A stretch of DNA of 64,000 nt from a marine bacterium B5-7 (GTDB lineage: Bacteria > Pseudomonadota > Gammaproteobacteria > Arenicellales > CAJQKF01): the NCBI GenBank assembly GCA_021604525.1, contig BQJD01000002.1, positions 24,282-88,281 on the forward strand. The letters are read 5' to 3'. Every line of letters starts with the position of its first letter. Positions within the stretch are counted from its first letter, which is position 1. Shown here in pieces: positions 948 through 12,839 of the stretch. The position numbers and the translations under genes are program-made. The notes under the pieces are model-generated. The model made no database searches, was not told where the DNA came from, and saw nothing but the letters and a program-made list of their open reading frames with translations.

Positions 948-2879
948 ATGAATTCACAAAATACAGGATTTCCAGTCAACCTGAAACGCAGCGCTCTTCT
1001 GATTCTCTTGCTCTGTCATTCGGCGACCAGCCAGGCCGAGATTAAGAAAATTCACCTGCCTATCTCGCTTGACAATACCTATTTACAACAAGCTGTACTC
1101 GCCCAAGCTTATACCGAGCCGGACAATAGCGCACGTGTCTGGGACGATGGTAGTGGCTGCAACTTTATGGTGCTGAGGAACCCTGCCTTCGATACCCTCG
1201 ATGGTCGTCTGCGACTGGTCACTGACGGTCAGGTGAGAGTTGGCAAACGATTCGGTGATAGCTGCCTGGTTGCCGTTGACTGGTCGGGAATCATGGAAAC
1301 CTACCAGGAGGTGAGCGTTGACGCGGCCACTTCGACACTGAAGTTTACAGTCATTGATTCGACATTAAGTGACGAGGGCGGTCTGACGGGTACGGTCTGG
1401 GACCTCGCCAAACAATACATGCATCCACGACTCAGTGCCGTGAAAATTGAACTCGGTCATGCCTTTACCGAACTCGGTGAAGTAATCGGTCACGTATTTC
1501 CAGAAGAGCCGGAACGGGTTGCGGCAATTCTTGATACCTTAACCATAGAGTCGGCGCGGGTGGTGGATAACGGGATTGAAGTGCAATTGGCATTCGCTGT
1601 CGATACCACCACGGCAGACACCAACGATATCACTACGCCACAGCCTGCCCTGACAGAAGAGGAAATGAAGCGCTATCAGGAATCGACGCAAAATTTTGAT
1701 AGCTTTCTAACCAACATCATCAAATACATGGCTTTTACCATCAGCGATCCCGCGATTCGACGTGATTTGCTGTATGTGCTTATCGAGGCCCGATATGACA
1801 TCCTGAGAGTCCTGAATGAGCCTTCCAGAACAGGGCTGGTGGATCCGGTGCGTGCACTTTTTGTAAGAACCTGGGCACGACTGTCGCCCATCCTCAGGGA
1901 ACTCGGTCCGGAAGAATCCGGACTGCGCGGTTTTGAATTACTGAGCTTTATAGCCGCAGCCGATGCACTGCACGCACTTGATTCACTCGGTCCTGAACTC
2001 AATCTCGAAATCTCGGCTAATGGCCTGCGTCGGATGGCTCGAATTCTGAACCCCGAAGCAACCGACGATCCGCTGAAATTCGACGAGGCAGTCGATTCCG
2101 ATCTTCGCGATATGTTTGAATTTTCCGCACCACGTCCTCCTGAATCCAACACCAACGAGAGCAATCCCGGTAACGACACGAACGAGAGTCGATACGAGCC
2201 TTCACCGCCATACGCACCGGACGTCGCATCGATACCCCAACGGTTATCGCGGCTCACATTCATTCCTGCCTATGCGGCCAACCCGATTGATAAGTCCATT
2301 TTGAAGCGACTTAACAGTTGGATACCCAAAGACGACGAATTCGAGGAGTACCTGCCGTTGGTACGCGACGTACTTTACCAGGCGGCCGAACAGACATTGG
2401 ATGATTCGAAACTTGAACCCTCCAGGCAAAGAATGTTCGAAACACTGGTACTTGCCACGGCCTGGCAGGAAACCTGCTGGCGTCAGTACACAGTCGTTCA
2501 GCGTCGGCTGGTGCCCATCAAATCTACAGGTGGCGCGCTTGGGATCATGCAGATCCTGCCTTCTGTCTGGCGCGGATTCTACGATCCCAACGGCCTTGCA
2601 TGGGATATCAGTTACAACGCTGCCGCTGGTAGCGAGATCTTGCTGCATTATCTTAAGGACTACGCCATTGCCCGCGGCGAACACGAGGAAAAGGGCGGCG
2701 AAGACAATCTACCGATGGCGACTTACGCAGCTTATAACGGCGGACCCGGGCAACTTGACCGCTATCGCCTCAAGGACACACCCAAGAGCCTGCACAAGAT
2801 TGATGCATCATTCCTTAAAAAATACAGGGCCATTGCCAAAGGCAACGATCTGGCGGTACTTACCTGTTTTACTGGTTGA
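948..2879 (+). CDS. Secreted lytic transglycosylase (C-terminal SLT domain) with a long N-terminal region of unknown function
   Basis: 643-aa ORF with an N-terminal signal peptide (LLILLLCHSATSQA/E). C-terminal SLT motifs: ATAWQETCWRQY, GALGIMQILPSVW, YNAAAGSEILLHYL, AYNGGPG. Confidence 0.8.
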   Translation: MNSQNTGFPVNLKRSALLILLLCHSATSQAEIKKIHLPISLDNTYLQQAVLAQAYTEPDNSARVWDDGSGCNFMVLRNPAFDTLDGRLRLVTDGQVRVGKRFGDSCLVAVDWSGIMETYQEVSVDAATSTLKFTVIDSTLSDEGGLTGTVWDLAKQYMHPRLSAVKIELGHAFTELGEVIGHVFPEEPERVAAILDTLTIESARVVDNGIEVQLAFAVDTTTADTNDITTPQPALTEEEMKRYQESTQNFDSFLTNIIKYMAFTISDPAIRRDLLYVLIEARYDILRVLNEPSRTGLVDPVRALFVRTWARLSPILRELGPEESGLRGFELLSFIAAADALHALDSLGPELNLEISANGLRRMARILNPEATDDPLKFDEAVDSDLRDMFEFSAPRPPESNTNESNPGNDTNESRYEPSPPYAPDVASIPQRLSRLTFIPAYAANPIDKSILKRLNSWIPKDDEFEEYLPLVRDVLYQAAEQTLDDSKLEPSRQRMFETLVLATAWQETCWRQYTVVQRRLVPIKSTGGALGIMQILPSVWRGFYDPNGLAWDISYNAAAGSEILLHYLKDYAIARGEHEEKGGEDNLPMATYAAYNGGPGQLDRYRLKDTPKSLHKIDASFLKKYRAIAKGNDLAVLTCFTG

Positions 2880-2977: not shown

Positions 2978-3026
2978 GCTGGAGCGGGTGATGGGAATCG
3001 AACCCACGTTAAGAGCTTGGGAAGCT
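2978..3026 (-). repeat. 49-bp perfect copy of the 3' part of tRNA-Gly (CCA end to anticodon loop); putative att-type direct repeat, distal copy
   Basis: gctggagcgggtgatgggaatcgaacccacgttaagagcttgggaagct is identical at 2978-3026 and 6294-6342. The sequence diverges immediately on both sides. Confidence 0.9.
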
Positions 3027-3665
3027 GCATCATCTGCCTATTCATATGTTGATCATATTCAAGGATTCGCCGCTTCAGCTAGCCGGATCAGGGAATCATC
3101 GTGCCAGGTAGAGTAAAGGTGCTAGTGGATGCGGTAGATTCACAGTTCCTGATCCGCCATACCCCACATACAGTGTCACACATTTATCTGTAGTGAGTTA
3201 ATAACAATAACGAATTGCGGTAGGGCGGCTAATACATGGGGGCATTACAGTATCGACAATACCACCTTACGTGAGCTTGACTTTGCCATTCTCTCATCTG
3301 GATTTCTCGTCTTGTCTGGACTTTACAGGCCCATCAAGAGGAGAAATCATCTTCCGATTATTTTCAATTCCGTGATCGGTAAGATCTCTGTTTTTCGCAC
3401 CGCCATAGGTAGTGTTTTAGCTGTTTGAATTAGTCAAATTCCTCTTCGACTATTGTCTCATGTCCAGCTTTTGCAGAGGTTCCTTAAATGACGAAATCGA
3501 TATCTCACGGGAATTTTCAGTATAATTCCTCCTTTTCCTGGTTTAAACCACAAATTCCCGCGAACTGATTCAGCCTGAGTCGGGAAAACGCTGGGATAAC
3601 TTGAATCGACCAAATCAATCATGCATTTGTATGTGCTTTGATGGATTTTACCAGCGGATCGGAGA

Positions 3666-5660
3666 TTGGAGATGAAAATACTGGCGCGACTTCGACGTTC
3701 AATATTTTTATTTATGGCTTTACTGCCACTGTTCTCCGTGGCCAATGCACAAGTGATAGACGCCGCATTGCAACTCAATGGCGCCACCTATTTCTTTATT
3801 GGCAATGTTTACTTCAGATTGCATGGAAGCCAAGTGGATAAAAACTATCCGTTGGCATTACCCGGAGGCTGGAAGGACCTGCCAAAAAGCTTTCACTCCG
3901 GCATCGATGCGGCGTTTTACCATCCAAAGAAAAAACGATCCTATTTCTTCAAGGGCAATCAATATGTCCGGCTGAATGGAACCAGGGTGGAACCGGGTTA
4001 TCCCAAACCCATCACCCAATGGAAGGGCCTGCCGGATGATTATCGTCAGGGTATCGAGGCAGCGGTGTACCGGGGGGGATACACCTATTTCTTTCGTTCC
4101 GGCAGTTATGTCCGTATCCGAAACACCACGGTGGATTCAGATTATCCGAAGTTGCTTCCCGGCGGATGGAAACTGCGAAAGATCAACTATTCAGGGCTGA
4201 CCGCCATGTTCAATGATCGGGCCAGGAACAAGAATTATATGTTCTTCAAAGATACGTACTGGCAATTGAATGATATCAAGTTGGATGGAGATTTCCGTAA
4301 TATGGCCAACTGGAAGGGTCTGATTGGGGAGGATGAACTCAGGGTCTATGTACAGGTGAATCAAGTTCCGCAATCCATTTGGGAGAACAAGCCCATTATT
4401 GCATCCTGTCACTACTATATTAAAACCCGGGGTGGATCAACAAACAACAAGGACTTCAGAATACCCATTTTTCTGGAGGCCAACTGGATTTACGACGAAT
4501 ATCAAGACGGACTGGAGAATAAAAACAATACCGGAGGTGGATCCGGTGAGCCAAATCCAAGAAAATTCATCGATATTCCCTTACTACATGGCCGATCGTC
4601 TTATCAGGATGTGCAGGGCAAACTGGTTTCAACATTGGCACCCAGCCTACCCGGCTCCTATAAGTACAGATGCCGTATCGGCAGCACGCAGATCAAGCAA
4701 TCGAACAAGAAAGACGATGTTCACGAGACCACGGTTTCGGTAAAGGGAGAGTGGCCAATTAAAAAAGAGGAAATACCGACACCTCTAATCATGTATCCCT
4801 ATCAACCTGCAATGGACATTGATGACACAACGGAAGTCATAGAGATGACCGGTCTGATTGCACCGGATAAAGTGGCCTTATGGGAATTCGCCGCCCAACG
4901 CACCGTGGTTTTCGATGAACGTTGGAATTTCCAGCTACTCAAAAAATCCGGAAGTCAGTACATCCCGGTTTCCACTTATTCCGGCAGTTTTACAAAATCC
5001 CAGATTCTCGATCGGGACTGGTCGTTCAAATCTGCGATTCCCAAAGCACAAGTGGCAATGCTCAGCGCAGGTCAATACAAACTGGAAAGCTGGCTCAGTC
5101 AGGCAGACACGCCAGAGGGGGAAATTTCCGGCCCAAAAACCAGTTTCGAATTCAGAATCAATCGCAAGTTCAAACTATCACCCAACATAACGGCGTTGGA
5201 TGAGTCCGGCGTAAGGCCCATACAGTCGGGCATGGTGTTACTTAATGTACTGGGCAAACCCGACCTGACCGTTCTGAATAAAGTGCACGCAGTGGGAAAG
5301 GACCATAAACCAAACGATATAATTCAATTTACCGATAATGATGCGGTCAATTGGGACAATGGTAGATGTGCCTTACCGATTCAGTTCTTTATCAACAACC
5401 GGGGTTCTACAGATGTTCAAGAGACTTTCAAGACTCGGATATTTATTTCCAACAACAATCGTTCTGTCAGGCAGGTCGGCGGCATCGGGGCAGGAAACAA
5501 CAAGACGATCGAGTCGAAAATCTGGCTCACTCCAGGTGTTGTCACTGAATTCAGCATCGAAGTGGATATCGACAATTCAGTCCAGGAATCATCGGAAAGA
5601 AACAACCAGGCGCACTTTAAAGGGATGGTATCCGGCGATTGCAGCGATCGGGTGCAATAG
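3666..5660 (+). CDS. Secreted hemopexin-like repeat protein (4 blades) with an uncharacterised beta-rich middle region and a C-terminal CARDB-like domain
   Basis: 664-aa ORF with signal peptide MEMKILARLRRSIFLFMALLPLFSVANA/Q. Four ~48-aa repeats (aa ~31-224) fit the hemopexin pattern IDAA..(x)YFF.G..Y.R......(D/G)YP..I/L..W.GLP. The C-terminus reads PDLTV...FFINNRGSTDV...IEVDIDNSVQESSERNN, which is CARDB-like. Confidence 0.7.
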   Translation: MEMKILARLRRSIFLFMALLPLFSVANAQVIDAALQLNGATYFFIGNVYFRLHGSQVDKNYPLALPGGWKDLPKSFHSGIDAAFYHPKKKRSYFFKGNQYVRLNGTRVEPGYPKPITQWKGLPDDYRQGIEAAVYRGGYTYFFRSGSYVRIRNTTVDSDYPKLLPGGWKLRKINYSGLTAMFNDRARNKNYMFFKDTYWQLNDIKLDGDFRNMANWKGLIGEDELRVYVQVNQVPQSIWENKPIIASCHYYIKTRGGSTNNKDFRIPIFLEANWIYDEYQDGLENKNNTGGGSGEPNPRKFIDIPLLHGRSSYQDVQGKLVSTLAPSLPGSYKYRCRIGSTQIKQSNKKDDVHETTVSVKGEWPIKKEEIPTPLIMYPYQPAMDIDDTTEVIEMTGLIAPDKVALWEFAAQRTVVFDERWNFQLLKKSGSQYIPVSTYSGSFTKSQILDRDWSFKSAIPKAQVAMLSAGQYKLESWLSQADTPEGEISGPKTSFEFRINRKFKLSPNITALDESGVRPIQSGMVLLNVLGKPDLTVLNKVHAVGKDHKPNDIIQFTDNDAVNWDNGRCALPIQFFINNRGSTDVQETFKTRIFISNNNRSVRQVGGIGAGNNKTIESKIWLTPGVVTEFSIEVDIDNSVQESSERNNQAHFKGMVSGDCSDRVQ

Positions 5661-5846
5661 GGAACACTGAGCGTCATCAACAACACCAATGTATTTGTAC
5701 AGAATGCTCAGTACGATAATCTATCCCTTAAGCCGGATCTGAAACTGAATTTCACCGAGCCCATGTCCGGCTATATCGAGATTCAGAACATCGGTGAAAG
5801 CCGATTGCCAAAACGGCGGAAATCTCCATCCAATGCTGGCATTTAA
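5661..5846 (+). pseudogene. In-frame continuation after the TAG stop of the hemopexin/CARDB gene; it encodes the start of a second CARDB-like module (likely a truncated remnant)
   Basis: Hand translation directly after TAG (5658-5660), same frame: GTLSVINNTNVFVQNAQYDNLSLKPDLKLNFTEPMSGYIEIQNIGESRLPKRRKSPSNAGI*, with stop TAA at 5844-5846. PDLKL...GYIEIQNIGES mirrors the start of the upstream CARDB-like domain (PDLTV...). Confidence 0.45.
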
Positions 5847-6293
5847 AACCTACAGGCGCTCAAGGATCATATAATGGTGGAATTCGTTGCATGACACTTT
5901 TGGCACCGCCCCTGGCCTTAAATGAAGTGTGACCTTATTGCTGCAGTAACCGGACTTAACCAGGGCGAGTATTGGTAGGGCAGACCTAAATTGCCGACTG
6001 CGGAAATCAGGTCAAGTCAAGGGTAGGAAGCGAATGGGTTGGAAGGCGGATTTGATAACCCATCAACAAGATAGACGTTTAACACTCGGGGTAAGCAATA
6101 ATCGCGGGCGGCCACTGACATGAGTTTTTTTTCGTGAGCCAGCATCCAGATTCCATGGCCTAAAAATGTGCGTCACTTAAACTGTCGAAGTGCTGTTATC
6201 AGACGCTGGCGAACCCATCGAATTGCATCGTGATTCGAGCATCCATGTAAAAAACGAGCGAACTATCTACATCGCTAAAAGCTATCTTGTTTA

Positions 6294-6342
6294 GCTGGAG
6301 CGGGTGATGGGAATCGAACCCACGTTAAGAGCTTGGGAAGCT
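6294..6342 (-). repeat. 49-bp direct repeat, proximal copy (inside the intact tRNA-Gly plus 2 bp beyond its CCA end)
   Basis: Identical to 2978-3026. Confidence 0.9.
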
Positions 6343-6369
6343 CCCGTTCTACCATTGAACTACACCCGC
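6296..6369 (-). tRNA. tRNA-Gly (anticodon CCC), CCA encoded
   Basis: The reverse complement folds as a cloverleaf. Acceptor GCGGGTG/CACCCGC, D arm GTTC-AATGGTA-GAAC, anticodon arm GGAGC-TTCCCAA-GCTCT, variable TAAC, T arm GTGGG-TTCGATT-CCCAT, discriminator T, CCA. Length 74 nt. Confidence 0.9.
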
Positions 6370-6376
6370 CGTTAAT

Positions 6377-6568
6377 TCAGCCCGTAGAGCAGCTCATGTC
6401 TTGCCCGCAGCATTGGGGCGATTTGATCATGCCGTGACCATTGGGGCACTTCGATACCTGTACGTCATTACCTTCGACGTCAATGCTACCGTTCTCAAGT
6501 GGGGCATCGCATTTTCCGCATGTCGCGTTCACACTCATCCCACATTTTTCACATTCATACGTAGCCAT
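6377..6568 (-). CDS. Small cysteine-rich (zinc-ribbon-like) protein, function unknown
   Basis: 63 aa starting from the second ATG, which is preceded by AAGGAG 7 nt upstream: MATYECEKCGMSVNATCGKCDAPLENGS...KCPNGHGMIKSPQCCGQDMSC. It has two CxxC pairs plus C/H/CC/C. It lies between gltD and tRNA-Gly on the same strand. Confidence 0.55.
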   Translation of the reverse strand: MATYECEKCGMSVNATCGKCDAPLENGSIDVEGNDVQVSKCPNGHGMIKSPQCCGQDMSCSTG

Positions 6569-6668
6569 ATCATATTCTCCTTTTGTCAATTCAACTGATT
6601 TTGTTGTTTATGTCGATGCCTTTCGCCATCACATAAGTCAGAAAATTACTGCTGTCTTTAGTTCGTAG

Positions 6669-8108
6669 TTACCTCGGTAATTCCGAGTGCCCCATCAGGT
6701 ATTCATCGACGGCACGAGCGGCCTGGCGGCCTTCGCGTATCGCCCATACCACCAATGACTGGCCGCGACGCATATCGCCTGCAACAAAGACGTTATCGAT
6801 ACTGGTACGATAGTTCTCCTCGTTGGCATTGACGTTGCCACGACCATCAAGTTCGACTCCGAGATCGACCAGCAGGCCTTCATGAACGGGATGCACGAAA
6901 CCCATTGCCAGCAAAATCATGTCTGCCTTGATGACGAATTCGCTGCCCTCGATCTCCTGCATTTGCCATGCACCCTTGTCATTTTTAACCCACTCAAGAC
7001 GAATGAGCTGGAGTCCGGTTACACGGCCATTGTCACCGACTACCGACTTGGTTGCCACGGACCAATCTCGATTACAACCCTCATCGTGGGAAGTTGATGT
7101 TCGCAATTTGAGCGGCCAGTTCGGCCAGGTTAACAGTTTATTCTCGCGTTCTGGCGGCTTGGGCATAATCTCAAGCTGGGTCACGCTTGCTGCTCCTTGC
7201 CGATTGGACGTGCCAACACAGTCGGCACCGGTATCGCCACCACCGATTACAACTACGTGCTTATCAGTCGCCAGAATGTCCTTGCCGATATATCCTTCAC
7301 CACTGACCCGCCGGTTTTGCTGGGTCAAAAAGTCCATGGCGAAAAAGGTGCCTTCAAAATCGCGGCCAGGAACTTCGAGGTCACGGGGTTTTTCTGAACC
7401 ACCGGTCAGCACAATGGCATCGTAACCATTAAGCAGTTTTTCAACCTCCACATTTTTTCCAACGTGAGAGTTGGGACGAAAGCGAACGCCTTCCGCCTGC
7501 ATTTGCGCAATACGCCTGTCGACGTGCTCGGCGGACATTTTGAAATCCGGTATACCATAGCGAAGCAGTCCGCCCATTCGACGATTCTTTTCAAACACCA
7601 CCGTGCGATGACCAGCCCGGGCAAGCTGCTGGGCGCAGGCGAGACCCGCCGGACCTGAGCCGATTACGGCAACACGCTTCCCGGTTTTGTGACGCGGAAC
7701 CCGAGGCAAAACCCAGCCTTCCTGCCAACCTCGATCGATAATGGCGCACTCTATGGTTTTAATGGTAACCGGCTCGTCATCAAGATTCAGGGTGCAGGAT
7801 GCCTCGCACGGCGCCGGACAGATCCGTCCGGTAAATTCCGGAAAGTTGTTGGTGGAATGCAGAACATCAAGTGCCTCGCGCCAACGATCGTGGTAGACCA
7901 GATCGTTCCACTCGGGAATGATGTTATTGACCGGACAACCTTCGTGACAATAAGGAATACCGCAACTCATGCATCGCGCCGCCTGATCGCGGGTGTCCCG
8001 CTCTGTCAACGGGATGACGAATTCCTTGAAATCGGTGAGACGCTGCTGAATCGGTAAATAGCTTCGATCGCGACGGCGTATTTCCATAAAACCGGTATCT
8101 TTACCCAT
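6669..8108 (-). CDS. gltD: Glutamate synthase (NADPH) small subunit
   Basis: Starts at [15 protein letters not shown] (internal Met of the 495-aa ORF). Motifs: CMSCGIPYC...[14 protein letters not shown], and dinucleotide fold [14 protein letters not shown]. Sits directly downstream of gltB. Confidence 0.9.
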
Positions 8109-8189
8109 GATGCATGTATCCGAAAAACGTGGGCGCGCACAAAGTCCGCCAGCCATGATTGAACAGTGAATTCAGCTTCGCCATAACCA

Positions 8190-11100
8190 TCAAGCGCCTA
8201 CTGCCAGATCAACGTCGGCGTGCTTGTCGTGGCGATCCTGCATCCGCTCCAACGCCTTGCGGTATTCCACCGGCATCACTTTGACGAAACGTAAACGGTA
8301 ATGATCCCAATCGGCGAGGATCTCGGCAGCCCGTGCGCTGCCAGTATATTGTCGGTGTCGTTCGATTAATGTTTTCAAACGATTCTGATCATTGCCGCTC
8401 ATGTCCGTCATGATATCGACCAAACCATGAGACTCGAGGTCACCGCCCTGGTGCGCTTCGCGCTCCAGTGCAATATCTTCATCGGCAATTGGCTCGAGTT
8501 CCACCATCGCCATGTTACATCGCATCTCGAAGTGACCATCCGTATCGAGCACATAAGCGATACCGCCACTCATACCCGCAGCGAAGTTGCGCCCGGTTTG
8601 ACCGAGTACCACCACACAGCCGCCCGTCATATATTCGCAGCCATGATCGCCAACACCTTCAACCACTGCGCTGGCGCCTGAGTTGCGTACACAAAACCGC
8701 TCCCCTGCAACCCCGGCAAAGTACACTTCACCGGAGATGGCGCCATACATCACGGTGTTACCGACAATAATGTTCTCATCAGCCTTGAGTCGGCTATCAG
8801 CAGATGGATAGACAATGATTCGTCCGCCTGAGAGTCCTTTACCCGTATAGTCGTTGGCTTCGCCCGCTAATTCGAGGGTGATACCACGAGCCAGAAATGC
8901 ACCGAAACTCTGACCACCGTTACCGCGGGCCCTGATGATTATGGTGTCGTCCTTGAGGCCGGCATGACCGTAACGTCGAGCGACTTCACCGGATAACATG
9001 GCACCTACGGTACGATTGGTATTGGCTACCTCGACTTCAATTCGCACCGGCTCCTGGGTCTCAAGCGCCCTTTGAGCCTGTTCGATCAATTGATGATCCA
9101 GCGCCTTGTCGAGACCATGATCCTGCAAATCAGTGTTGTAGATAGATACATCATCTGTCGCATCGGGAACGGTGAATACCCCGGTAAAGTCGAGTCCACT
9201 GGCCTTGAAATGTTCGACTGCCTGGCGAACATTCAACCGATCGGCATGTCCGATCATCTCGTTGAATGTTCGGTAGCCGAGTTTTGCCATCCATTCACGG
9301 GTTTCCTCGGCAATAAACATGAAGAAATTAACGACATCTTCAGGTTTGCCGACAAAGCGCTTGCGCAATTTCGGATCCTGCGTTGCGACACCCACCGGGC
9401 AGGTATTCAAATGACACTTGCGCATCATGATGCAACCGGAACTGATGAGTGCAATGGTGCCGAAACCGACTTCGTCAGCACCAAGCAATGCGGCAATGGC
9501 AACATCACGTCCGGTTCGCATACCACCATCAGCCTGCACCGCTATGCGTCCGCGCAGGTTGTTCATCACCAGGGTCTGATGGGTCTCGGCAAGCCCGATC
9601 TCCCATTCTGATCCAGCATGCATAGTGGAGGTCAACGGACTCGCGCCGGTGCCCCCTTCAGAGCCCGAGATCAGCACATGATCAGCGTGCGCCTTGGAGA
9701 CTCCCGCTGCGATGGTGCCCACACCCACCTCGGACACCAGTTTGACGCTGATACGCGCTCGGGGATTCACGTTCTTAAGATCGTGAATCAACTGCGCGAG
9801 ATCCTCGATGGAGTAGATATCATGATGCGGTGGTGGTGAGATCAGTCCGACGCCGGGGGTTGAGTGACGCACCCGGGCAATCCATTCATTGACCTTGTGA
9901 CCAGGAAGCTGACCGCCTTCCCCAGGCTTGGCACCCTGTGCCATTTTGATCTGGATATCGTCGGCATTAACGAGGTATTCGGCATGTACGCCAAAACGTC
10001 CGGAGGCGATTTGCTTGACTCGCGAACGCATGGAGTCACCGTTAGGAAGCGGTTTGTACCGCTCAGCTTCTTCACCACCCTCACCCGTATTGGAGCGTCC
10101 ACCGATCCGATTCATGGCAATTGCCAGGTTGGTGTGCGCCTCCCAGGAAATCGAACCGAATGACATGGCGCCTGTCGCGAATCGCTTGACGATCTCGCTG
10201 GCCGGTTCAACCTCGTCAAGCGGTACCGGATCACGGTCGAAATTAAACTCGAACAAACCGCGCAGGTTTTTAACATGGTTGCCGGGATTGTCCATGATTG
10301 ACGAGTATTCCTTGAATCTCGCGTAATCACCTGAACGCACCGCATGCTGAAGCTTTGAGACCGTCTTCGGCGTCCACACATGATCTTCGCCGCGCAACCT
10401 GAACGCCAGTTCACCACCCACATCGAGAGCATCCACAAGGGTTGGATCGTTGCCGAAGGCCAGATTGTGACGACGCACGGTTTCCTCGGCGATATACTCA
10501 ATTCCGATTCCTTCCACCGCGGTAGCCGTTCCCGTGAAGTAGGTGGCGACGAACTCCGATGACAAACCCACCGCATCGAAGATTTGCGCTCCGCAGTATG
10601 ATTGATAGGTGGAGATACCCATCTTCGACATCACCTTCATCATGCCTTTACTGATGGCTTTCAGATAGCGTGTATGAGCATCTTCCAGTGACACCGATAC
10701 ATCGAGATTCGGCAGCAGTTGCGAGATGCTGTCGAGAGCGAGATAGGGGTTGATCGCTTCAGCGCCGAATCCGGCAAGCAGACAGAAGTCGTGCACCTGA
10801 CGTGCTTCGCCAGTCTCCACCACCAGGCCGACATCGGTGCGCAGCCCCTCACGAATAAGGTAGTGATGCACAGCGCCTGTGGCAAGCAGTGACGGGATGG
10901 CGATGTTGTCCATATCAACAGCGCGATCGGACAGAATCAGAATATTGAATCCACGTTCTTCAACCAGTCGTTTGGTCTTGAGACACAAACTTTCGATCGC
11001 TGCCGCCATTCCATCGGCACCCGCACTTGCAGGGTAGACAAGCTCCATAGTGTAGGTACGGAATGTGCTCTGCTCGAAGTCTTCGATGCGGCGGATTTTT

Positions 11101-12839
11101 TCCAGCTCAACACTCGATAATATCGGCTGACGAACCTCCAGGCGCTTATTCTTGCCTCCACTGGTGAGATCAAGCAGATTGGGACGTGGACCGATAAGCG
11201 ATACCAGCGACATCACCAGTTCTTCACGAATCGGGTCGATGGGCGGATTGGTTACCTGGGCAAAGTTCTGTTTGAAATAGTCAAACAGCATCTTCGGCCG
11301 ATGCGACAGCACCGCAGGCGGAATATCACGGCCCATGGACCCCACCGGATCCTGTCCGCTGATTGCCATCGGCTTCAAGAAAAATTCGAGATCCTCGCGA
11401 CTGTAGCCGAAGGCTTGCTGACGATCCAGCAGGGTCGCTGGATCAGGCACCATCGCCGGAACTTCCGCCGGCACGTCCTCGAGCTTGATCTGGGTCTCGT
11501 CGAGCCAGCGCTGGTAAGGTTTGGCGGTAGCGAGTTCTTCCTTGATTTCCTCGTCGTCGATGATGCGACCCTGCTCGAGATCGATGAGAAACATCCGCCC
11601 CGGCTGCAATCGCCATTTCTTGACGATCTTCTCTTCGGGAATATCGAGTACACCCATCTCCGAGGCCATTACCACCGTGTCATCACTGGTGATGAGATAG
11701 CGCGCCGGCCGCAGGCCGTTGCGGTCGAGCGTTGCGCCAATCTGGCGGCCGTCGGAAAATGCTACGGCTGCCGGACCATCCCACGGCTCCATCAACGCCG
11801 CGTGGTATTCATAAAATGCCCGACGCTTGTCGTCCATCAACGGGTTGTCGAGCCATGCTTCGGGAATCATCAACATGACCGCATGGGCCAGCGAATAACC
11901 ACCGGCTACCAGCAACTCAAGGGAGTTGTCAAAGGTGGCGGAATCGGAATTGCCGTCGCCGATCAATGGCCAGAGTTTTTCGAGATCATCACCAAGCAGT
12001 TCCGAGCGCATGTTATGTCGCCTGGCCAACATCCAGTTGATGTTGCCGCGCACGGTATTTATCTCACCGTTGTGGCACAGGTACCGAAAAGGTTGCGCCA
12101 ATTCCCAGCTTGGAAATGTGTTGGTGGAAAATCGTTGATGAACAAGGGCCAGCGCTGATTCAACCCGCTCATCGTTGAGGTCAAGGTAATAGTTGGGCAG
12201 GTTGGCAGCCAGTACCATACCTTTGTACAGCAGGGTGCGCGCCGACATCGACGCCACATAGAATTGTTCGTGGCCTTCCGGTGCCAAACGGTGAATCCGA
12301 AAATGCGCCTGTTTGCGAATAACAAACAGCTTGCGTTCAAATGCGTCGGTGTCTGCGCAATTGTCGCCCCGCGCGATAACAAACTGACGAATCACCGGCT
12401 CCATGGGCTTGACACTGAAACCCAGGCAGCTATTGTCTGTGGGCACATCCCGCCAGCCGATGACCCGCTGACCTTCTTCAGCCGCCATCTGCTCAAGTGC
12501 GAATTCACATTCCTTGCGAGTTGATGAAATACGCGGCATGAATACCATGCCCACGGCATAATCGCCGTAGGCTGGCAGATCCAGTCCAAGCGCCTGACAC
12601 TCTTCGCGTATCAGTCGATCAGGCATCTGGATAAGAATGCCTGCGCCATCGCCGGCCAGCGAATCCGCACCCACCGCGCCGCGGTGAGTGAGATTGGCGA
12701 GAATGGTCAAACCGTCACGAACGATTTTGTGACTCTTGCGATTCTTGATGTCGGCAACAAACCCAACACCACAGGAGTCGTGCTCGTTGCGCGGATCATA
12801 CAGGCCGAATGCGGCCTGTCGTTTAACACCTGTAACCAT
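8190..12839 (-). CDS. gltB: Glutamate synthase (NADPH) large subunit
   Basis: 1549 aa. The amidotransferase N-terminus has a propeptide and catalytic Cys ([12 protein letters not shown]). FMN/central domains and the C-terminal GXGXG-rich domain are recognisable. Paired with gltD. Confidence 0.95.

Follow-up and report, generated by a model that had tools for sequence, protein, structure and literature searches.

Analysed here is a 64-kb stretch of DNA from the metagenome-assembled genome (MAG) of the marine bacterium B5-7 (GCA_021604525.1, contig BQJD01000002.1, positions 24,282 to 88,281; 64,000 nt). The whole stretch is called the window, and coordinates refer to it. It contains a 3,267-bp islet (3027-6293) that adjoins a tRNA-Gly(CCC) gene and is enclosed by the two copies of a 49-bp direct repeat. 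The islet is probably a decayed tRNA-integrated element of the cis-mobilisable element (CIME) type, which kept its attachment (att) site copies and one cargo gene for a secreted hemopexin/CARDB protein. On the best reading it is a well-known kind of feature, the scar of a mobile element at a tRNA gene, with the insertion enzyme gone.

A repeat search of the window returned one family of 49-nt direct repeats, with 100 % identity between 2978-3026 and 6294-6342 and a spacing of 3316. By our own estimate, the chance expectation of a 49-mer match in 64 kb is about 1e-20. The sole tRNA gene of the window, tRNA-Gly(CCC), was located at 6296-6369 on the minus strand, with its CCA encoded, by using ARAGORN and Rfam (RF00005, 71.2 bits). 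In tRNA numbering, the repeat spans nt 28-74 of 74 plus 2 nt downstream; it starts with the final 3 nt of the anticodon stem's 5′ strand and runs through the whole anticodon loop, variable region, T-arm and 3′ acceptor strand to the CCA end. The original prediction of a perfect 49-bp repeat, shared by the tRNA gene and 2978-3026 and made up of 47 tRNA nt from the CCA end and 2 bp more, was borne out; the inner limit, placed there at the anticodon loop, was found slightly further on, in the anticodon stem.

The distal copy holds a 47-nt fragment of the tRNA 3′ part (2980-3026) that is 100 % identical to the intact gene and lies on the same replicon. The minus strand holds both copies; relative to the tRNA gene, the fragment is on the 3′ side and in direct orientation. 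That the distal copy might belong to a second complete tRNA gene had been raised earlier and was checked with both programs: neither ARAGORN nor Rfam called a tRNA at 2978-3026. Only a sub-threshold T-arm match was obtained there with Rfam, and the copy is therefore a fragment and not a second tRNA gene. A search pattern that excludes full tRNAs matched solely 2978-3026 within the window. The geometry is thus the integration footprint that had been proposed: an intact tRNA gene (tDNA), an insert 3′ of it and a 3′ fragment in direct orientation that begins in the anticodon stem. By the side and orientation of the repeat and its boundary in the anticodon stem, the islet matches the majority class of tDNA islands; in the Islander survey, a 3′ fragment was found in 3760 of 3919 islands and an anticodon-centred site in 2083 (PMC4383910). 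Integrating elements, through the partial duplication of tRNAs, are a widespread source of such gene fragments (PMC9897764).

An insertion of the transposon or insertion sequence (IS) type was considered and rejected. No inverted-repeat pairing was found at the islet ends in the repeat search, no transposase domain was found in the islet with Pfam, and the 49-bp duplication is a part of a tRNA, not a short target-site duplication.

The gene order gltB, gltD, Zn-ribbon gene, tRNA-Gly(CCC) is common to the window and six relatives (loci L023, L011, L028, L041, L042 and L043). Their gltD is 80-85 % identical to that of the window (77-86 % for the right-flank genes, tblastn), with a gap in gltD identity from 100 % (same organism) to the next match at 85 %; the 100 % match is a protein of the B5-7 MAG, an unclassified gammaproteobacterium. 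In L042, the upstream synteny covers at least 10 kb and also includes M24 peptidase, M20 peptidase, ABC ATPase and FecCD genes. Each relative has a single tRNA-Gly(CCC) gene, and its 74-nt sequence is identical to that of B5-7 in five of the six, with one mismatch in the sixth. A DUF2058 gene starts approximately 75-125 nt after the tRNA and is followed by a LysR gene; between them, DsrC is annotated in the loci with gene calls (L041-L043). It had been considered that all relatives might carry the segment at the same place; neither an islet-like segment nor a tRNA fragment is present in any of the six loci.

Inside the islet, the description as one intact gene with long non-coding stretches was upheld. 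The non-coding parts are 3027-3671, which ends at 3671 if the ATG start of the cargo gene is used, and 5661 (or 5847)-6293; together they make up 39 % of the islet (ca. 1.3 kb). Islands in tRNA genes usually carry the integrase gene beside the tRNA 3′ end, a position that matches 5847-6293. No integrase remnant was found in six-frame Pfam scans of both non-coding stretches (stops masked, E≤10), in which the end of the cargo's own CARDB domain was the sole match. With PHROGs (E≤1), neither the cargo protein nor the tRNA-proximal stretch gave an integrase or recombinase match, and for phage-related genes nothing better than E = 0.26 was obtained. The earlier statement that no integrase, excisionase or mobility gene is recognisable thus agrees with Pfam (islet genes, six frames) and PHROGs. 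A prophage or phage-satellite remnant was rejected on the same PHROGs result, together with empty blastn searches of 50,697 phage records and empty IMG/VR scans. Beyond the islet, no recombinase, transposase, relaxase or phage protein was found with Pfam in 34 of the 38 open reading frames (ORFs) of at least 200 aa in the window, all 34 of which gave housekeeping or cargo-type domains only; of the four unscanned ORFs, two overlap larger genes on the opposite strand and two are the last in the window. No mobility domain was found in the 6 kb beyond the left end of the window.

No structured RNA or riboswitch was matched in the non-coding parts with Rfam (E-value mode), and the fold z-scores were unremarkable (-1.25 and -1.9 in the left stretch; -0.56 and +1.18 in the right). 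One promoter-like site was located in the left stretch (3497-3526); promoter-like and terminator-like sites are no commoner in the non-coding DNA of the islet than in shuffled sequence.

The sole intact gene of the islet was called as an ORF at 3666-5660 from TTG. Its start is likely the ATG at 3672, preceded by GGAG 7 nt upstream, from which the translation reads as a signal peptide (MKILARLRRSIFLFMALLPLFSVANA/Q). The signal peptide is followed by a hemopexin propeller of four blades, then by a rare central domain and, at the C-terminus, by a CARDB domain (Pfam Hemopexin, 1.3e-32; CARDB, 3.2e-9). The nearest solved structure to the propeller is the MMP-14 hemopexin domain (E 3.6e-22), and the best matches of the hemopexin domain are in Arenicella MAGs. 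The central region (ca. 290 residues) has approximately seven distant relatives in 1.84 billion representative proteins. The only clear homologue of the cargo protein beyond the hemopexin domain, P0292, is 37 % identical over residues 11-506 and has no CARDB domain. Its gene (L044, 2394-3977; ENA ERZ25074695, a metagenome contig) adjoins a HipBA toxin-antitoxin pair and an IS110 transposase gene, a hint that accessory DNA is where this rare family of proteins resides. A single-sequence AlphaFold2 model of the cargo protein was unusable (pLDDT 31.5). Exact-protein look-up returned no record for the cargo protein (from the TTG start), the Zn-ribbon protein or the 495-aa gltD product.

After the TAG stop of the cargo gene, the frame stays open for 61 codons (5661-5846). 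With the translation of this stretch, neither Pfam nor BLASTP gave a significant match, be it to CARDB or to another sequence, and a second CARDB fragment at this position was rejected on that result. A 'KPDL' motif in it resembles the start of a CARDB domain, with no significant similarity shown. As read from the translation, the stretch may be a decayed 3′ extension of the cargo gene.

The islet has a GC content of 46.3 %, the lowest of 608 windows of the same length (mean 52.3 %, sd 1.9). The AT-richness that had been noted by eye is therefore real, but it is a weak sign of foreign origin, as codon usage and GC3 are host-like. GC3 of the cargo gene is 0.54 against 0.57±0.04 in 36 other genes (z = -0.8), and its synonymous-codon likelihood under host usage is average (z = -0.14); its GC1 (0.49 versus ca. 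0.60) reflects amino-acid composition. The GC contents of the non-coding parts (43.6 % and 46.4 %) are like that of the other intergenic DNA (mean 47.5 %). The low GC content of the islet arises from its non-coding share and from amino-acid composition, not from foreign codon usage, and is a case in which low GC alone can mislead. If the islet is foreign, its donor would have been compositionally similar, because the codon usage is host-like. A donor related to the host would fit the Arenicella matches of the hemopexin domain and the Arenicellales relatives of the SLT-domain protein encoded beyond the distal repeat copy.

The sequence was also found in the Logan assemblies of run DRR328264, in which the unitigs are 100 % identical to the window or differ by one SNP at position 3514. 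This position (T in the window, A in the islet unitig) lies within the spacer of the promoter-like site in the left non-coding stretch. Three k=31 unitigs each end 30 nt inside a repeat copy: the L001 end, both L006 ends and the L040 end correspond to window positions 3007, 2997, 6323 and ~6313, and the islet forms a separate unitig of 3,327 nt. The deposited 242-kb contig spans both repeat copies. The integrated state is probably real, given that this contig crosses both and that ordinary reads are longer than 49 bp.

From these data we infer an integrase-mediated origin, a later loss of the integrase gene and a compositionally similar, related donor. The 3,267 bp would have entered the chromosome by tyrosine-integrase site-specific recombination between attP and the tRNA-Gly(CCC) gene, with the crossover in the anticodon-loop region (anticodon-centred site). 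The element would have brought a replacement for the 3′ half of the tRNA, by which the gene stayed intact, and the original 3′ half would have come to lie at the far end of the insert. Later deletions would have removed the integration module, with any transfer or phage genes; left behind would be both att copies, ca. 1.3 kb of non-coding DNA without features and one cargo gene that looks expressed. The large non-coding share and the open frame past the cargo stop would fit such decay. As in CIMEs, attL and attR are retained (predicted sites in a perfect 49-bp block) and no integration or transfer genes were found. Judged by its gene content, the islet could not move alone; judged by its sequence, the arrival of a cognate integrase could still allow its excision. 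The distal copy is not under tRNA selection, and its perfection is compatible with a fairly recent insertion. At typical bacterial substitution rates, 49 neutral bases can stay identical for millions of years (estimate), and the perfection of the repeat is therefore a weak clock.

Several points weigh against a decayed integrated element. The decay is deduced from absence, because no mobility pseudogene was detected, and composition gives no independent support for a foreign origin, because the codon usage of the cargo gene is host-like. Because the unitigs break inside both repeat copies, the k=31 graph taken by itself fits the integrated state and an empty site with a 3.3-kb circle equally well. 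An empty site, which had been expected to have the SLT gene directly next to tRNA-Gly, was found in no genome; the relatives have DUF2058, DsrC and LysR after the tRNA. With no near relative in the databases (nearest gltD 85 %, nearest SLT 52 %), the classical empty-site comparison is not possible. Homologues of the SLT protein are at most 52 % identical (search of 5.8 billion proteins), those with names being Arenicellales. On the contigs of these homologues, neither tRNA-Gly nor gltD lies next to the SLT gene; in one relative MAG (JAUIEZ), the SLT gene and the tRNA are on different contigs. A search of GTDB genomes with the SLT protein for related loci gave no relative. Finally, the synteny of the window with the six relatives ends exactly at the tRNA 3′ end. 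The SLT gene stands past the distal repeat copy in place of DUF2058, DsrC and LysR, which are nowhere in the 64-kb window, and a simple one-step insertion is therefore insufficient for the whole locus. Before the insertion, the neighbour of the tRNA may already have been another one in the B5-7 lineage; if not, something further happened at the tRNA (a larger composite island or an att-associated rearrangement).

The second of these options corresponds to an unlikely alternative, in which the distal copy would lie within a larger island (composite or tandem) as an internal att site, or would have arisen as a by-product of a rearrangement at the tRNA. The DNA on the SLT side would then not be the ancestral neighbour either, and the far boundary would lie beyond the left end of the window. 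The loss of synteny at the tRNA 3′ end and the missing DUF2058, DsrC and LysR genes agree with it, and tandem accretion at tDNA sites is common (PMC5704250), with 125 tandem arrays in Islander (PMC4383910). However, the left flank looks native: its GC content is host-like (51.6 %), it carries housekeeping genes, including those of a sugar ABC transporter, and a transporter of this kind is also found a few kb from the SLT gene in relatives. The 9 kb to the left yielded no integrase and no further tRNA fragment. A composite island is compatible with the decayed element as far as the 3.3-kb unit is concerned.

It is quite unlikely that the islet is a functional minimal element that never had an integrase, that is, a single-gene cassette bounded by att sites and moved in trans by a tRNA-Gly-specific helper integrase. 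In its favour, the att copies are identical at 49 of 49 positions although the distal one is free of tRNA selection, no integrase pseudogene is detectable with Pfam or PHROGs, the intact cargo gene has a good ribosome-binding site and encodes a signal peptide, a circular form would agree with the k=31 graph, and the mobilisation of CIMEs with adjacent elements is documented (PMC5704250). The perfection of the repeat is weak evidence here as well, as neutral bases persist, and the reconstructed attP arms had no repeated arm-type motifs above shuffled sequence. No helper integrase was found in the scanned window ORFs or in the 6 kb to the left, and searches for a second copy were negative. In 33 GTDB species, the 47-nt tRNA 3′ part was found in full tRNAs in every case (29 with an identical 5′ part) and never as a partial copy. 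The ORFs just downstream of these tRNAs, judged by inspection only (no Pfam), were like peptidases, aminotransferases and similar enzymes, not integrases. Two patterns that exclude full tRNAs, validated on the window, had no match in JGI metagenomes; four pattern scans of IMG/VR gave none, and blastn of the islet DNA gave none to the phage records and none to plasmids. So far, the islet element is a one-off in GTDB representatives, JGI metagenomes, IMG/VR, phages and plasmids. Very unlikely is the stronger form of this idea, a still-active mini-island, comparable to a miniature inverted-repeat transposable element (MITE), that shuttles the rare hemopexin/CARDB protein among related marine gammaproteobacteria through a borrowed tRNA-Gly(CCC) integrase; the assembly graph would then record real excision in the sampled population.

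An assembly artefact, in which a mis-resolved repeat hides an SLT gene next to the intact tRNA and a separate 3.3-kb molecule, or two unrelated loci, is hardly credible: the source is a MAG and the three unitigs that stop 30 nt inside a repeat copy leave two valid k=31 traversals, but 49 bp is shorter than ordinary reads and larger assembler k-mers, the deposited contig runs through both copies, a 3.3-kb circle without a replication gene is unlikely to persist, and the alternative traversal is the excised form of the same element and not an unrelated artefact.

Table 1. Coordinates of the islet, its att copies and the flanking genes in the window.
Feature	Position	Strand	Basis
SLT-domain lytic transglycosylase gene, 643 aa, left flank	948-2879	+	Pfam SLT, 6.6e-6
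Distal att copy (attR-like), displaced tRNA-Gly(CCC) 3′ fragment	2978-3026	-	identical to 6294-6342
Left non-coding part, 645 nt, 43.6 % GC, upstream of the cargo gene	3027-3671		Pfam, Rfam, fold checks
Cargo gene, 662-aa predicted secreted protein	3672-5660	+	Pfam Hemopexin, CARDB; signal peptide read from translation
Open frame after the cargo stop	5661-5846	+	translation
Right non-coding part, adjoins the tRNA 3′ end	5847-6293		Pfam, PHROGs, fold checks
Proximal att copy (attL-like), repeat block within the functional tRNA gene, with 2 nt more	6294-6342	-	repeat search
Intact tRNA-Gly(CCC), putative integration target	6296-6369	-	ARAGORN; Rfam RF00005
Right flank: Zn-ribbon gene (6377-6589), gltD (6669-8156), gltB (8190-12839)	6377-12839	-	Pfam; tblastn

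Two side observations concern the gene block of the right flank. The Zn-ribbon-like, Cys-rich ORF between gltD and tRNA-Gly (63-70 aa) has no curated family match; it was found with 77-81 % identity in three relatives (tblastn), a 64-aa gene is called at this position in two further relatives, and in the window it holds an internal 28-nt tandem repeat (6399-6454, 71 % identity). The locus L011 (DATGQR010000524.1) belongs to a MAG labelled 'Thermomicrobiales bacterium' and has the gammaproteobacterial block of gltD, Zn-ribbon gene, tRNA-Gly and DUF2058; it is near-identical to L028, from an 'uncultured Gammaproteobacteria' MAG, in the downstream stretch compared. The L011 block is probably a binning contaminant.

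The islet was compared with three groups of known islands. CIMEs are integrase-less, att-bounded elements that were defined for decayed streptococcal ICEs (integrative and conjugative elements) and IMEs (integrative and mobilisable elements; PMC5704250). Like the islet, they keep both att sites (attL and attR) at a tRNA gene's 3′ end and contain cargo only, with no integration or transfer genes. In contrast, the host of the islet is a marine gammaproteobacterial MAG; no remnant of an ICE or IME is recognisable in the islet, which has neither a helper element nor a tandem partner beside it and is very small, with a single gene. The islands in Islander likewise have their ends marked by a complete tDNA and, in direct orientation, a 3′ fragment that was displaced, with an anticodon-centred class among them (PMC4383910). 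Islander requires a tyrosine integrase gene, whereas none was found in the islet, the single gene of which encodes Hemopexin and CARDB domains, and the islet would therefore be filtered out. In Dehalococcoides, 15 ssrA islands are without an integration module (PMC3146451). These, too, are cargo-only and bounded by direct repeats of the 3′ end of the target RNA gene, but they form tandem arrays beside integrase-bearing islands at the tmRNA gene and recur across strains, whereas the islet is solitary, at tRNA-Gly, and seen in one organism only.

The value of the finding is mainly one of annotation: it puts on record, for a poorly known lineage of marine gammaproteobacteria, an integration site at tRNA-Gly(CCC), with an island of the kind that integrase-dependent island finders discard. 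Its cargo protein is a member of a very small family of secreted hemopexin-fold proteins of bacteria, so far uncharacterised. If the islet proved to be excisable in trans, it would represent a compact case of mobile DNA with cargo only, from outside the two groups in which such elements have been described, the Firmicutes and Dehalococcoides.

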